From IMG/VR virus record IMGVR_UViG_3300012933_000155, positions 71,079 to 135,078 of that record: 64,000 nt of DNA; one strand, 5' to 3'. The notes below the pieces were generated by a model. It had not been told where the DNA came from, ran no database searches, and saw only the letters and a program-made list of their open reading frames with translations. Positions 24,695 to 63,642 of this stretch are shown one piece after another. The first letter of the stretch is position 1. The number at the start of each line of letters is the position of its first letter. Made by a program: the position numbers and the translations under genes. This DNA comes from a virus.

Positions 24695-24906
24695 ATGTAG
24701 CGAAAGAAAACATGTGGCGTAATTTACAGGGACTAAAACCTGTACAGTCATGGAAATGCAAATTGAATTGGCATAAGTGGACTAATTACGAAGTCGTAGA
24801 ACCTAGGAATGAGTTCAGTAACCGCATGTATGCAGTATGTCATTGTGCAGATTGCGGAATGCCTAGAATTGAACAACCTTTTACAAAGAGTATAAAAAAT
24901 GGCTAA
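24691..24906 (+). CDS. Small Cys/His (Zn-ribbon-like) protein
   Basis: WKCKLNWHKW...CHCADCG. Confidence 0.55.
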   Translation: MNVAKENMWRNLQGLKPVQSWKCKLNWHKWTNYEVVEPRNEFSNRMYAVCHCADCGMPRIEQPFTKSIKNG

Positions 24907-25459
24907 TGATATTATGATTGACATTGAGAGTTTAGACACAACACCTGATTGTGCTATTCTTACAATTGGTGCAGTGCGTTTTGATCCTAGAGGATCAGGT
25001 GTTGTTGAGAAACTAGAATTAAGACCTACACTAGAAGACCAGACAGAGATATATAACAGGAGAATCAGTGATGATACCGTTCGTTGGTGGTCCGAGCAGA
25101 ACCCCGCAGCCATCGAAGAAGCGATGGGAGATTCTGGACGAGTCCCTTTTAAAGAGTGTATGGAGACGCTTTATAAGTTTTGTTGGAATCGCCGTGCTGT
25201 TTGGTCTAATGGTGCACCATTCGACTTGGTCGTTATGGAAAACGCCTGGAGACAAACAAGCGACAAGCCGAATCCTATCCCCTGGGCTTTCTGGTCAATG
25301 CGAGACACGAGAACATTGTGGGAAATCGCAGGTGTTAAACTTAAAGACGGCGGACACGTTACAAGTCACAAAGCCGTAGAAGATGCAGAACGACAAGCCA
25401 TTGTTGTTCAACAAGCATACGTGAAATTAATGAAAGCTGGATTGGCAGACCCACGATGA
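24899..25459 (+). CDS. DEDDh 3'-5' exonuclease (RNase AS/DexA-like)
   Basis: IMIDIESL (ExoI), WSNGAPFD (ExoII), HKAVEDA (ExoIII). Confidence 0.85.
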   Translation: MANDIMIDIESLDTTPDCAILTIGAVRFDPRGSGVVEKLELRPTLEDQTEIYNRRISDDTVRWWSEQNPAAIEEAMGDSGRVPFKECMETLYKFCWNRRAVWSNGAPFDLVVMENAWRQTSDKPNPIPWAFWSMRDTRTLWEIAGVKLKDGGHVTSHKAVEDAERQAIVVQQAYVKLMKAGLADPR

Positions 25460-25833
25460 GTAAGTTAGAAGAAATAAGGGCAAAAGTCGCTGCCGCTATT
25501 GAGGCAGAAAAATTAAAACCTAAGAAACCTAAACCAAAAAAATATACTGACTACCACTGCGTAAATTATAAACTCAGTAATGAATATGATGAATGGCATG
25601 AATGGATGTGGAACCCGACTCATCCAACTAGGGTATATTTTGAAGAAAACGGAAATGGAAGTCTCGTCTGGCCTACTAGCCGACACTTTACTCAAAATGG
25701 AAGACGAGAAGGTAATTATCAATATTTACAATTTAGATTTGACGAATTAGAAGATGCTGAAAAGTTTGCTAAAAAATTCGGCTTGAATGTATCCACAGTG
25801 AGATATAGTAACGGACCTGGGAGTTACTTTTGA
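25456..25833 (+). CDS. Hypothetical protein, distant LRW-family-like C-terminus
   Basis: LQFRFDELEDAEKFAKKFG. Confidence 0.55.
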   Translation: MSKLEEIRAKVAAAIEAEKLKPKKPKPKKYTDYHCVNYKLSNEYDEWHEWMWNPTHPTRVYFEENGNGSLVWPTSRHFTQNGRREGNYQYLQFRFDELEDAEKFAKKFGLNVSTVRYSNGPGSYF

Positions 25834-26414
25834 AATTTCAATCAGATATTGACATTGACTTTGGTAACAGGGGTAATATCCTGCAACACATTAAGCATAT
25901 ACCTGCAGCCATGCGTAATGTAACACCTATTCGTAAACATGCAACAGGTGTTCATGTAGCAGATATACCATACGATGCTATCAATGACATGGCAAACATT
26001 GATTACACAGAAGCAGAAGAACGTGGATATTTTAAGTTAGACTTGTTGAATGTGCATCTCTACAACTTTGTACGTGATGAGCAGCATTTACAAGAGTTGA
26101 TGCAAGAACCTGATTGGGAAATGCTCAAAGATAGAAAGACGGTTGAACGATTAATTCACTTGTCGAATCATTACAACAGCCTTCAGCGTATGCCTGAGCC
26201 GGTAGATACTATTCCTCGTCTTGCTATGTTTCTGGCGGTAATTCGCCCAGCGAAGAAACATCTGATTGGTCTCCCATGGGTCGATGTGGCGAAAAGTGTC
26301 TGGGAAAAAGAATCTGACGACTATCATTTTAAGAAGTCGCACAGTGTTGCCTATGCAAACCTTGTTGTTGTTCATATGAATTTGTTAAAACAAGGTATTA
26401 TGACAGACGTTTGA
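25830..26414 (+). CDS. dnaE: Minimal DNA polymerase III alpha (DnaE) catalytic fragment, C-part
   Basis: SDIDIDF (DxD), KHATGVHV, GYFKLDLL (third Asp), LAVIRPA, HFKKSHSVAYA; TTG start overlapping the upstream TGA. Confidence 0.85.
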   Translation: MKFQSDIDIDFGNRGNILQHIKHIPAAMRNVTPIRKHATGVHVADIPYDAINDMANIDYTEAEERGYFKLDLLNVHLYNFVRDEQHLQELMQEPDWEMLKDRKTVERLIHLSNHYNSLQRMPEPVDTIPRLAMFLAVIRPAKKHLIGLPWVDVAKSVWEKESDDYHFKKSHSVAYANLVVVHMNLLKQGIMTDV

Positions 26415-26778
26415 CGAGAGTGATTGATTTGCGTTTTGATTTGCGTTTTGCTAGTTCTAGCATACTACAAGTGGGACCGTGAATTACAGATAAACTTTTG
26501 TTGTTAAACGTTCTTAGATAGGGCTTGAACATAGCCCACTCATCTTTTAAGAACATATTGATTGGAACTAATCTATTAGATTCCCACCACCATATGTCTC
26601 CTAGTTCTAGGAACTTCTCACGCATAACTTGGTCAACAATAGAGCCATAGTCATATATAGTGGTAACAATGTCGTCCCTGTTCTGGACAATCCCCACATA
26701 GTCTTGCCCTGCGTAGGAGCAAACCGTTATGAACGGGTGATTTTCTGATAATCTCTTGAAGAATTCGTTTGGAATCAT
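26398..26778 (-). CDS. Conserved hypothetical protein
   Basis: Late promoter GATAAATA on the minus strand (26798-26805); WWWESNRLVPIN. Confidence 0.65.
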   Translation of the reverse strand: MIPNEFFKRLSENHPFITVCSYAGQDYVGIVQNRDDIVTTIYDYGSIVDQVMREKFLELGDIWWWESNRLVPINMFLKDEWAMFKPYLRTFNNKSLSVIHGPTCSMLELAKRKSKRKSITLVKRLS

Positions 26779-27658: not shown

Positions 27659-28636
27659 ATGTTTGACATTAAATCAATTCTCCCCGGTAGAAAGAAAACA
27701 ACAGTAAGCGGTTGGCTAAGTTTCAACGCTGTTTGTTGCGGACATCGTGGACACAAACCTGACCGTAAAGGTCGTGGTGGTTTAAAGTTCAACGGTGCTG
27801 ATTGGACTTATCATTGTTTTAACTGTGGGTTCAAGTGTAGCTTTTCTTTGGGTAGAACTATCTCTCACCCTGCACGTGACCTATTACAATGGTGCGGAGT
27901 AGACTCGCTACAGATTCAACGCTGGAGCTTAGAGAGTTTACAATACAAAGATATTTTAGATTTCTCAAAACCCAAATATCAGTTTTCAATCAACTTCAAT
28001 GAGAAAGAGTTACCTGAAGAAGCAGAGATACTGGATCCAACAAATCCATCACACAAAGTATTCTCAGATTATCTACACAAACGCAGTATAAGTACTGATG
28101 ACTTCCCGTTTGTAGTCACTCCAACATTGCCCGATAGAATGGGCAACAGAATTATCATACCGTATACATACAAAGGACAAATTGTAGGCTATACAAGTAG
28201 ATTTTTAGATAATAGAGCACCCAAATATATTAACGAACAACAGCCAGGTTATGTGTTCAACATTGACCTACAAAAACCTGATTGGAACGTTTGTATATTA
28301 ACTGAAGGTATTTTTGATGCGTTGGCTATTGACGGTGTCGCGGTAATGCACGATGACATTAGCAACGAGCAAGTGCAACTTCTCAGTACGTTAAACAGAC
28401 CTATCATTGTAGTTCCTGACAGAGATAAGACAGGACTAAAGATGTGCGATAGGGCATTAGAATTAGGTTACAAAGTTAGTTTACCTAACTGGGAACCAGA
28501 TGTTAAAGATACAAACGATGCAGTAGTAAGATACGGGAAATTGCCGACCTTATTGTCTATACTTCAAAGTGCAACTAATAGTAAAATCAAAATAGAATTG
28601 CAGAGGAAGAAAATTGGTAAACAAATCGGATTATAA
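27659..28636 (+). CDS. gp61: DNA primase (gp61-like; Zn ribbon plus TOPRIM)
   Basis: CC...YHCFNCG Zn site, RIIIPY, ILTEGIFDAL, VVPDRD, KDTND. Confidence 0.88.
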   Translation: MFDIKSILPGRKKTTVSGWLSFNAVCCGHRGHKPDRKGRGGLKFNGADWTYHCFNCGFKCSFSLGRTISHPARDLLQWCGVDSLQIQRWSLESLQYKDILDFSKPKYQFSINFNEKELPEEAEILDPTNPSHKVFSDYLHKRSISTDDFPFVVTPTLPDRMGNRIIIPYTYKGQIVGYTSRFLDNRAPKYINEQQPGYVFNIDLQKPDWNVCILTEGIFDALAIDGVAVMHDDISNEQVQLLSTLNRPIIVVPDRDKTGLKMCDRALELGYKVSLPNWEPDVKDTNDAVVRYGKLPTLLSILQSATNSKIKIELQRKKIGKQIGL

Positions 28637-30068
28637 AATAGAATACACCACTGAGGTGCAGAAGTGGTTTTTGAGAATGATGTTGACCGACGGTCAACTA
28701 TACACACGTGTAGCTAACATCATTAGCCCAGAGAACTTTGACAAGTCATTGCGTCCAGTTGTCGAGGCATTTAAGGAAAGTGCAGAACAATATAGTTCGA
28801 TACCAGAGCCTGAACTAATTAGAGCATCAACTGGTATTGACTTACAACCATTAGAAGGCATTACTCAAGGTCACACTGATAAGTTCTTAGAAGAATTCGA
28901 AAAGTTCACAAAACGTCAAGAACTAGAACGTGCGATTTTGAAAGCAGCCGACCTGCTTGAGAAGGGTGATTACGGTCCTGTTGAAAAACTAATCAAAGAC
29001 GCAGTTCAAATCAGTCTACAAAAAGACATGGGTACAGATTACTTTCATGATCCTAAAGGACGTATCAACAAATACTTTAACTCAGGCGGACAAGTATCAA
29101 CAGGCTGGCCGCAACTAGACAGATTGTTATATGGTGGTTTCAGTCGTGGTGAATTGAATATCTTTGCAGGTGGCTCAGGTTCAGGTAAGTCTCTTGTTAT
29201 GATGAACTTAGCGTTGAACTGGTTACAACAAGGTATGAGTGGTGTATATGTATCACTTGAATTGTCAGAAGAATTGACATGTTTGCGTAGTGATGCTATG
29301 TTAACAGCCATGAGTACTAAAGACATTCGCAAGGACATTGATTCGACTGAACTTAAAGTTAAGATGGTTAGTAAGAAAGCAGGTCAGTATCGTGTCAAAG
29401 CAATGCCTGCACAAAGTAACGTGAATGACATTCGTGCTTATCTTAAAGAAGTTCAAATTCAAACAGGTATCAAAGTTGACTTTGTAATGGTTGACTACTT
29501 AGACTTGGTTATGCCAGTGTCTGTTAAAGTTAACCCTAACGACCAGTTCATTAAAGACAAGTATGTTTCAGAAGAACTACGTAACTTAGCTAAAGAACTA
29601 GGTGTACTGTTAGTTACAGCGTCACAGTTGAATCGTTCAGCCGTTGAAGAAGTTGAATTCGACCACAGTCACATTGCAGGTGGTATCTCTAAGATTAACA
29701 CAGCGGACAACGTGTTTGGTATTTTTACTTCACGAGCTATGAAAGAGCGAGGGGTCTATCAGATTCAGTGTATGAAGTCTCGTAGTTCTACTGGTGTTGG
29801 TCAAAAGATTGACTTGACATACAATATTGAAACTATGCGTATCACTGACGATGATCCTGAGGGTTATGGTGAGCAACAAGCAAAATACAAACAACAACCG
29901 TCAGCAAATGCTATTCTAAGTCAACTAAAGCCACAGTCAACACTGACTGCAACTACTCCCATAATCGACCAATCTACCGGTGAAGTACTAGAACCAGTAG
30001 AAAAGAAAGTTGTAGCAGATGTTCAGGGTGCAAAACTGAAAGCAATGCTTAATAGTCTAAAGCGATAA
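28614..30068 (+). CDS. gp41: Replicative DnaB-like helicase (gp41-like)
   Basis: STGWPQLD, AGGSGSGKS, VSLEL, VMVDYLD, TASQLNR, MKSRSS. Confidence 0.92.
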   Translation: MVNKSDYKIEYTTEVQKWFLRMMLTDGQLYTRVANIISPENFDKSLRPVVEAFKESAEQYSSIPEPELIRASTGIDLQPLEGITQGHTDKFLEEFEKFTKRQELERAILKAADLLEKGDYGPVEKLIKDAVQISLQKDMGTDYFHDPKGRINKYFNSGGQVSTGWPQLDRLLYGGFSRGELNIFAGGSGSGKSLVMMNLALNWLQQGMSGVYVSLELSEELTCLRSDAMLTAMSTKDIRKDIDSTELKVKMVSKKAGQYRVKAMPAQSNVNDIRAYLKEVQIQTGIKVDFVMVDYLDLVMPVSVKVNPNDQFIKDKYVSEELRNLAKELGVLLVTASQLNRSAVEEVEFDHSHIAGGISKINTADNVFGIFTSRAMKERGVYQIQCMKSRSSTGVGQKIDLTYNIETMRITDDDPEGYGEQQAKYKQQPSANAILSQLKPQSTLTATTPIIDQSTGEVLEPVEKKVVADVQGAKLKAMLNSLKR

Positions 30069-61102: not shown

Positions 61103-61131
61103 TTGCACTTGCTTGACAAATCTGTTATACT
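61103..61131 (+). promoter_or_regulatory. Sigma70 promoter for the DnaE N-fragment
   Basis: TTGCAC-17-TATACT, with the ATG 6 nt downstream. Confidence 0.6.
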
Positions 61132-61137
61132 ATCTTA

Positions 61138-61644
61138 ATGAATACCGATAGTTACAGCAGACAAATTCTCACAGAGAATGACCTCTGTGAGATTTACCTT
61201 AAAGACCCTGAAGCAGTTGTAAAATCTGCAACGGTCAATAAAAGTATCACATTCTCAGACTATCTTGAGATTGAAAACATCCCAGAGATAAGTGTCGTGC
61301 AACCTTTAACTATGTCAGTTGAAGATTATGACATGATGAACCAAAATAATTGGTACATCCCCGAAACATACAAGACATTTGACATAGCCAAGTGGTTACT
61401 TGAGCAATGCAAAGAAGATTACGAACTACAAAGAGTGGGTGAAGAACTCTTGTTGTTCCAAGAAAGAGACTTATTCCCATTATTATGTTATTGCAAGTAT
61501 CTAGTTGATACAATGCGTAAACATAACGTAGTATGGGGCGTGGGTCGCGGTAGTAGTGTAGCGAGTTACGTATTGTACCTAATAGGGGTACACCGTATAA
61601 ATAGCTTGCATTATGACTTGTCGATTGACGAGTTTTTAAAATAG
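61138..61644 (+). CDS. dnaE: DNA polymerase III alpha (DnaE) N-part fragment
   Basis: QRVGEELLLF...LVDTMRKHNVVWGVGRGSSVASYVLYLIGVHRINSLHYDLSIDEFLK matches the DnaE GxGRGS motif region. Confidence 0.88.
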   Translation: MNTDSYSRQILTENDLCEIYLKDPEAVVKSATVNKSITFSDYLEIENIPEISVVQPLTMSVEDYDMMNQNNWYIPETYKTFDIAKWLLEQCKEDYELQRVGEELLLFQERDLFPLLCYCKYLVDTMRKHNVVWGVGRGSSVASYVLYLIGVHRINSLHYDLSIDEFLK

Positions 61645-62363: not shown

Positions 62364-62716
62364 TGAAATGGTTTTTTAATTGGCTGTATAACGGCATCAA
62401 AGACATTGAAGCACACAATCGTGAAGAAACTGGCTTTGCTACACAATCAGGCTTGGTTGCCAGAGCAAGAGGACCCAAGAACTTCAAGATGAACGTTGGG
62501 CTTGCAAAGTCAGCAACAGACGAGAACCATATCCATCTAAACCAATCAGCTATGAATTTTAGATTGTATCCAGCAACAGGTGGACACATTGTAGAATATT
62601 CTTATTACAATGAGAATACAGACCGTAACACTCAAGCACTTCACTTGATTCCAAGTGATGCAGACTTAGGTGATGCACTTAGTAAAATTATGACATTGGA
62701 AGCATTGAAGCGATGA
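62363..62716 (+). CDS. Hypothetical protein
   Basis: TAATG-coupled ORF. Confidence 0.6.
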   Translation: MKWFFNWLYNGIKDIEAHNREETGFATQSGLVARARGPKNFKMNVGLAKSATDENHIHLNQSAMNFRLYPATGGHIVEYSYYNENTDRNTQALHLIPSDADLGDALSKIMTLEALKR

Positions 62717-63642
62717 AAAATAACTTGTGGGTAGAAAAGTATCGCCCTAACTCAGTATCAGACTATGTGTTCGTTGATGAACGTCAAAAAGAACAAGTAG
62801 ATGGTTGGATTAAACAGGGTGAGATTCCTCACTTGTTACTGTCAGGTGATCCAGGTACTGGTAAAACTACTCTTGCAAAGGTACTAATCCATGAATTGAA
62901 AGTGGATGACTATGATGTACTAGAGATTAACGCATCACGTGAGAACAGTGTTGATACAGTCCGTGACAAAATCAGCGGGTTCGTTCAGACAATGCCCTTC
63001 GGTAAGTTCAAGATTGTTCTTCTTGACGAAGCTGACTATCTAAGTCCCGCAGGTCAAGCAGCATTGCGTAATGACATGGAAGCATACTCTATGACAGCAC
63101 GTTTCATTCTTACTTGTAACTATGAGCATCGTGTTATCCCTGCATTGCGTGAATCACGCTGCCATAAGTTTCACATTGCTAAGCCAGATAAAGAACAATA
63201 TACCCTTCGTGCAGCCACAGTACTCGTGTCTGAAGGTGTTGAGTTTGATTTAGATGTACTTGATACTTACGTTAGTGCTTGCTATCCAGACTTACGTAAA
63301 TGCTTGAATCAATTACAAGTAAATAGTAGTGCAGGTAAGCTAATAGCACCACAAAGTCAAGGCTCAAGTGAAGATGATTTGTTGACAGATGCAACACAGT
63401 TGTTTAAGACTGGCAAAGTTACAGAAGGTCGTCAGCAACTATTACAGTATTTGAGTTTGTATCCAAGTCGTATTGAGGACATCTATCGTTGGATGTACAA
63501 CAACTTAGACTTGTGGGGTAAAACTAGTGAGCAGAAAGATGCAAGCATCATTATCATTCGTAATGGTCTAGCAAATCTCGGCTTAGTGGGTATCCCAGAG
63601 ATTAACTTAGCAGCCACTCTAATCGAATTAACAGGACAATAA
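62713..63642 (+). CDS. gp44: Clamp loader large subunit (gp44/RFC-like AAA+)
   Basis: LWVEKYRP, SGDPGTGKTT, EINAS, LLDEAD, ILTCNY, SRC, YPDLRK. Confidence 0.92.
   Translation: MKNNLWVEKYRPNSVSDYVFVDERQKEQVDGWIKQGEIPHLLLSGDPGTGKTTLAKVLIHELKVDDYDVLEINASRENSVDTVRDKISGFVQTMPFGKFKIVLLDEADYLSPAGQAALRNDMEAYSMTARFILTCNYEHRVIPALRESRCHKFHIAKPDKEQYTLRAATVLVSEGVEFDLDVLDTYVSACYPDLRKCLNQLQVNSSAGKLIAPQSQGSSEDDLLTDATQLFKTGKVTEGRQQLLQYLSLYPSRIEDIYRWMYNNLDLWGKTSEQKDASIIIIRNGLANLGLVGIPEINLAATLIELTGQ

Follow-up and report, generated by a model that had tools for sequence, protein, structure and literature searches.

A two-gene, minimal form of DNA polymerase III alpha (Pol III alpha) has already been described in jumbo phages of the RaK2/PA5oct/Atu_ph07 type (Iyer, Anantharaman, Krishnan, Burroughs and Aravind 2021, Viruses 13:63, PMC7824862), where a role in the synthesis of one strand or in repair was suggested and where such minimal forms were proposed to resemble the ancestor of Pol III. 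Earlier genome papers had called the N-terminal half a truncated Pol III alpha (PMC5259590; PMC6102473). The halves now carry corresponding annotations in several GenBank records, and no biochemistry or other experiments on the split minimal enzyme were found in the literature searched.

Cyanobacteria likewise obtain Pol III alpha from two distant genes; their DnaE halves (DnaE-n/DnaE-c) carry split-intein pieces and are trans-spliced to full-length DnaE, and the break is located elsewhere in the protein than in the phages. A second C-family polymerase beside a main replicase and a primase is found in B. subtilis, where DnaE, which is full-length and clamp-binding, extends primers and hands over to PolC.

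We analyzed a window of 64,000 nucleotides, the final 64 kb of a 135-kb IMG/VR virus record that was judged 39% complete and therefore points to a jumbo phage with a genome of approximately 340 kb. About ten studies, chiefly of freshwater and aquatic metagenomes, contained DNA resembling the window; four runs labelled RNA-Seq (three marked as probably DNA, the fourth as RNA by guess only) contained relatives only, mostly less than 95% identical, and are uninformative on expression. Two open reading frames of the window, 25830-26414 and 61138-61644, very probably encode the two subunits of a minimal, split Pol III alpha, a C-family polymerase of the group 2.2 jumbo phages, whose activity we infer. 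The pair is less than 60% identical to that of any cultured phage, and its source is an uncultured freshwater jumbo phage.

Compared with the published group 2.2 enzymes (PMC7824862), the pair shows the same NTP-binding N-terminal half (N-half) and Mg-/template-binding C-terminal half (C-half), the same wide separation of the genes, and the same phage group (relatives of RaK2, 121Q, PA5oct and Atu_ph07), with T4-type replisome genes in the window and a family B polymerase in a 97%-complete relative; we found no difference in kind. Orthology to the RaK2, PA5oct and Atu_ph07 proteins was supported by tblastn (E = 1e-26 to 1e-49) and by membership in phrog_11778 (C-half) and phrog_11127 (N-half), both of which are labelled DNA polymerase. 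A quick, weakly resolved, midpoint-rooted tree nested the protein of the window among those of the same phages. The locus is thus a correct rediscovery of a kind already published. The initial annotation had read the two genes as a minimal two-part C-family enzyme, which the placement of both halves in DnaE/PolC by profile and fold searches supports, and had cautioned that comparative genomics of jumbo phages might already hold such fragments, as proved to be the case. The value of the locus lies in a well-verified member of the family together with three additions that we did not find in the text of PMC7824862 and that are leads only: a fused 375-aa form, a 126-aa gene that is a constant neighbor, and a DEDDh exonuclease adjacent in the clade of the window.

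The C-half (194 aa; 25830-26414, +; phrog_11778, E = 5e-55) was assigned from profile, hhalign, AlphaFold2 (AF2) and dN/dS analyses. The reading frame stands as first described, with its start codon corrected to TTG; a GGAG lies 6 nt upstream, and the start overlaps the stop of the preceding ORF. Re-reading the translation recovered exactly the five DnaE core motifs that had been reported, in the reported order (SDIDIDF, KHATGV, GYFKLDLL, LAVIRPA, FKKSHSVAYA), and the motif sets of the C-half and N-half together are far beyond chance. The distance from DxD to His is 29 aa (D8 to H37), compared with 109 aa in a natural full-length DnaE (locus L105); the initial annotation had given about 20 aa for this ORF and about 110 aa for E. 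coli DnaE, so its shortening holds while the smaller figure does not. Given this spacing, the thumb is missing from the C-half. The C-half has a second deletion, of approximately 90 aa, in the stretch from the RP to the KSH motif. This stretch measures 28 aa in the C-half, compared with an E. coli RP motif that closes near residue 641 and a KSH motif inside 739-767, so that a portion of the fingers is missing as well. Both the thumb and the finger deletion had been anticipated from the spacing. Retained in the C-half are the beta-sheet portion of the palm, which bears K69 and the Asp triad (D6, D8, D71), and trimmed fingers with R139-P140 and K168-S-H171.

As a single sequence, the C-half matched nothing relevant in Pfam or the PDB; profile and fold searches succeeded. 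We built an alignment of 75 C-half representatives with 28-55% identity to the protein of the window, and the resulting profile retrieved nine different sequences from the PDB, each of them a Pol III alpha (E = 2e-5 to 4e-4). Its segments were collinear with the E. coli protein (54-140 onto 538-641, and 151-178 onto 739-767), and the DxD motif aligned weakly to E. coli 399-406. Through hhalign, the C-half was matched to the full-length L105 DnaE with 90% probability across the HxxG, KxD and RP motifs. In all 75 aligned sequences D6, D8, K69, D71, R139 and P140 were invariant, with D10, H37, G40, K168, H171 and A176 conserved in at least 90%. The three Asp residues D6, D8 and D71, whose variation among homologues would have spoken against an enzyme, align with MPDFDVDF and KFDFLG of E. 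coli alpha (metal-binding D401, D403 and D555), and the finger motifs RPG and KSHxxAYA are both present, aligning to E. coli near 639-641 and within 739-767, respectively.

We then compared the AlphaFold2 model of the C-half (pLDDT 95.4, pTM 0.89) with known structures. The top 16 PDB matches by Foldseek were all C-family polymerases (best E = 2.6e-3), and VIA-align gave Z scores of 9.8 with PolC (3f2c), 9.5 with the Taq enzyme (3e0d) and 8.4 with residues 399-785 of the E. coli enzyme (2hnh). The VIA alignments covered 183-191 of the 194 residues, with an E. coli span of 397/399-785; the top 15 rows were all C-family polymerases, and the best unrelated chain reached Z 4.0.

These comparisons bear on whether the pair might act as a nucleotidyltransferase and not as a templated polymerase, using a bare Pol-beta-like palm for untemplated tails, a nucleotide signal or RNA-end modification. 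The Pol-beta-fold superfamily holds many non-polymerase transferases, and such a function would suit proteins from which the thumb and every DNA-tethering domain are absent, in phages whose relatives already own a full family B replicase. We nevertheless consider it unlikely, given that RP and KSHxxAYA, which contact the template and the incoming dNTP in Pol III alpha, are kept and nearly invariant, that the structural neighbors across the full 194 residues are C-family polymerases only, and that the genes lie in replication modules, not in defence or RNA-repair modules. A templated polymerase is our preferred reading.

The N-half (168 aa; 61138-61644, +; phrog_11127, E = 1e-39), assigned from Pfam, AF2 and dN/dS, is a separate gene 35 kb away that carries the motif GVGRGSSVAS and ends in IDEFLK; both ORFs exist as the initial annotation had stated. 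Pfam family PF07733 (DNA_pol3_alpha) matched it with E = 7.5e-9 (36 bits; cut-off 23.9; model positions 16-94). In hhalign, the N-half matched the L105 DnaE with 76% probability, its motif aligned to GPGRGSGAGS, and the alignment stopped exactly at FERFLN. The AF2 model (pLDDT 83.5), built from an alignment without the proteins of named phage records, superposed residues 73-168 on E. coli alpha 279-393 with Z 9.7 and an rmsd of 2.7 Å over 92 residues; the top 10 VIA rows were all C-family polymerases, and nothing else exceeded Z 2. The models of the single halves matched only Pol III alpha/PolC, and each computational check proposed at the outset that was run gave a favorable result. The helical portion of the palm corresponds to residues 73-168 and includes the triphosphate-binding G134-x-G136-R-G-S139, of which G134, G136, R137, G138 and S139 are invariant. 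By a hand count over the FERFL alignment, E165 of the N-half stands opposite R390 of E. coli alpha, so one basic residue is not kept.

Residues 1-72 of the N-half (61138-61353) are a lineage-specific extension, predicted as a small beta/alpha unit, which had no aligned counterpart in Pol III alpha structures and is poorly conserved beyond the close clade. A gap of 5 nt that lacks a Shine-Dalgarno sequence separates the end of a promoter-like site, TTGCAC-17 nt-TATACT (61104-61140), from the ATG of the N-half, and a transcript from this site would be nearly leaderless.

On E. coli alpha the two halves abut, the N-half at 279-393 and the C-half at 397-785, and together they span 279-785 in approximately 290 residues. 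The two proteins sum to 362 aa, in line with the earlier estimate of about 360. Pfam revealed neither a PHP domain nor an intein on either ORF, consistent with the earlier report that intein remnants were not visible, and thumb, clamp-binding, OB, tau-binding and proofreading parts were not recognizable in the two proteins. The bacterial enzymes (2hnh, 3e0d, 3f2c) share with the phage pair the Pol-beta-like palm, the GRGS motif, the Asp triad and the RP and KSH motifs, and the models superpose on them; DnaE/PolC are, however, chains of about 1100-1400 aa, whereas the phage pair comprises two polypeptides of about 360 aa in total without PHP, thumb, HhH/beta-binding, OB or tau-binding domains. 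A canonical full-length DnaE/PolC holds PHP, thumb, clamp-binding and OB parts in one chain, and the phage pair does not; we did not class it as a canonical DnaE because of its 362 aa and the loss of PHP, thumb and part of the fingers. Unlike in the cyanobacterial DnaE halves, no intein domain is detected in the phage proteins, which end and start within a few residues of the break, and their ligation is not expected. If active, the pair would be the smallest known C-family polymerase core, with approximately 290 residues of palm and fingers over two chains, and would define the catalytic minimum of the bacterial replicase fold. It would also bear on the proposed nature of the Pol III ancestor (PMC7824862).

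Selection on the two genes was evaluated by the Nei-Gojobori method against relatives of 76-94% amino-acid identity, which gave dN/dS values of 0.06-0.12 for the C-half and 0.08 for the N-half. Both halves are under strong purifying selection, far from the value near 1 that had been named as the mark of a pseudogene. These data refute the reading of the two ORFs as decaying fragments of a captured bacterial dnaE, to which we assign a negligible probability even though the N-half was called a truncated Pol III alpha in a genome paper (PMC5259590): besides the low dN/dS, at least 8000 metagenome clusters at 90% identity were found for each half, all near the query length, and the protein ends are kept even where lineages are only about 35% identical. 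With at least 597 IMG/VR loci carrying the C-half, the split Pol III alpha family is abundant and conserved across jumbo phages of many hosts.

The two halves also occur together, as had been suggested for checking. A tblastn search recovered 96 phage records with the C-half and 95 with the N-half, and the counts per genus were almost the same for the two; every record was of a jumbo phage (RaK2/121Q/GAP32, PA5oct, Atu_ph07/Phosso and related groups), and both halves were present in nine of the nine large records checked directly. The genes themselves are far apart and in different gene runs, separated by 35 kb in the window and by up to approximately 220 kb in Phosso; none of the 80 related IMG/VR loci had the N-half within flanks of up to 10 kb around the C-half. 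The position of the break is constant in all lineages examined, being the short loop between FERFL and DxD: the N-half ends in EFL[KNE] with at most one further residue in RaK2, 121Q, Atu_ph07, Phosso, Ettore and four uncultured relatives, and the C-half begins 5 residues before DxD. Such distances between the genes would be compatible with halves that no longer cooperate and were each exapted to a task of their own, such as that of a non-catalytic adaptor in the replisome. This seems to us highly improbable in view of the near-identical phyletic patterns, the invariant active-site residues in both halves, the conserved split point and the existence of a natural fusion.

The fusion is a 375-aa protein (P0278), the only fused one among 363 representatives with E ≤ 0.001, and provides independent support for the halves acting as one enzyme. 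Its residues 68-180 match the N-half (E = 4e-23) and residues 190-370 the C-half, joined as KEFIK, a 10-residue linker and DFDID. It is encoded by a single called gene with a PF07733 match (L004:1066-2193, +) on an ENA metagenome contig of 2415 bp, on which a truncated homologue of the convergent 126-aa gene described below comes after it. In a quick, weakly resolved, midpoint-rooted tree, its C-terminal part grouped with two stand-alone C-halves (SH-aLRT 94). Sufficient flanking sequence was available for just one of the two, in which a zinc-finger-like gene, and not an N-half, lies upstream. From this grouping and this upstream gene, the fusion is probably, though tentatively, secondary. Further fused copies were not found among the longer relatives of the C-half of the window, IMG/VR held no close relative of P0278, and a metagenome scan with P0278 returned two full-length DnaE genes only.

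We investigated the neighborhoods of both genes for partners. The C-half gene lies in the order UvsW-like helicase, C-half, small convergent gene, structural-like protein, gp61-type primase and gp41/DnaB-type helicase, which is kept from the window to RaK2, 121Q, Atu_ph07, Phosso and Ettore, with the UvsW-like helicase not annotated everywhere. In the window, the primase (27659-28636, +; phrog_47, E = 6e-40) and the helicase (28614-30068, +; phrog_19, E = 1e-70) are syntenic with the C-half, as in all lineages examined. The N-half is situated just upstream of a GroES/gp31-like gene and then of a gp44-type clamp-loader large subunit (62713-63642, +; phrog_168, E = 3e-73; Pfam AAA and Gp44_lid), the third gene downstream, an order repeated in a relative (L100). 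A T4-type primase, helicase and clamp loader plus a UvsW-like helicase are thus present within the 64-kb window. The search for a family B polymerase that had been recommended gave a divided answer: none was found in the 135-kb fragment, which represents 39% of the expected genome, but a relative of 338.5 kb and 97% completeness (G001) encodes both halves together with an 893-aa family B polymerase.

The small convergent gene (26398-26778, -; phrog_11637) encodes a 126-aa protein that we regard as a candidate accessory component; its 3' end overlaps that of the C-half by 17 nt. Of 86 loci, 83 have it beside the C-half, those of RaK2, 121Q, Atu_ph07, Phosso and Ettore among them, and each of the three loci without it has less than 600 nt of downstream DNA. 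The protein occurs in 89 phage records from the same genera as the C-half and shares its phyletic pattern. In an alignment, the WWWESNRxIPINxFL core was conserved and the C-terminal tail, K[RK]xKR[RK]SITLV[KR][KR], was basic; searches of Pfam, PDB profiles and the ESM Atlas gave no match.

The second gene upstream of the C-half (24899-25459, +; PF16473, E = 6.9e-33) encodes an Rv2179c-like DEDDh 3'-5' exonuclease. It lies directly upstream of the C-half, at an offset of about -550 nt, in 47 of 80 IMG/VR relatives, and was not found beside the C-half in RaK2, Ettore, Atu_ph07 or Phosso. It may be a proofreading partner of the C-half. In the window, the two genes are separated by a 125-aa ORF (25456-25833, +) that is missing from the relatives, where related contigs join 25417 to 25831. 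This ORF contains an FxFxxxEDAxxF-like motif resembling that of an array of small paralogues at 18.6-24.4 kb.

The preferred mechanism would begin with the N-half, whose helical palm part would hold the triphosphate of the incoming nucleotide through the GRGS motif. The C-half would contribute the three metal-binding Asp residues and the RP and KSH finger motifs to the same active site, its thumb (about 80 aa) and approximately 90 aa of its fingers having been removed. The halves would assemble non-covalently, and the heterodimer would polymerize deoxynucleotides on a template. Having no PHP, thumb, clamp-binding, OB or tau-binding domains, it is probably a distributive enzyme, and it would probably serve as an auxiliary beside the family B replicase of the phage in a T4-like replisome; templated, processive synthesis is not assured for a protein pair without a thumb or a recognizable clamp-binding or proofreading domain. 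We favor, with low confidence, a role in extending primers from the neighboring gp61/gp41 primase-helicase, a suggestion drawn solely from the gene neighborhood and from the B. subtilis DnaE, to which the likeness is a functional analogy only. Short-patch repair synthesis is an alternative role held with similarly low confidence.

The 126-aa protein and the exonuclease of the clade may be accessory subunits of this polymerase. A fuller version, which we find doubtful though conceivable, would be a three- or four-part machine in which the 126-aa protein is an obligate subunit that replaces the thumb or provides tethering via its basic tail to DNA or the clamp, and in which the exonuclease may proofread in the freshwater clade.

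Upstream of the C-half, distant lineages encode a protein of 180-250 aa with a weakly C2H2 zinc-finger-like N-terminus, whose Pfam matches fall below the curated cut-offs. The corresponding genes (L101:474-1028; L091:2884-3630; L003:2822-3493; L093:2446-3198; L002:2199-2909) include immediate upstream neighbors of the C-half in L101 and Ettore, and lie at least one gene away in RaK2, Atu_ph07 and Phosso. Separately, we observed a full-length-type DnaE encoded as two adjacent ORFs 66 nt apart on contig OKRZ01000398.1 (L104:3366-7382, +), one carrying the PHP domain (382 aa) and the other the polymerase part (933 aa), which could represent a different split, a frameshift or an assembly error.
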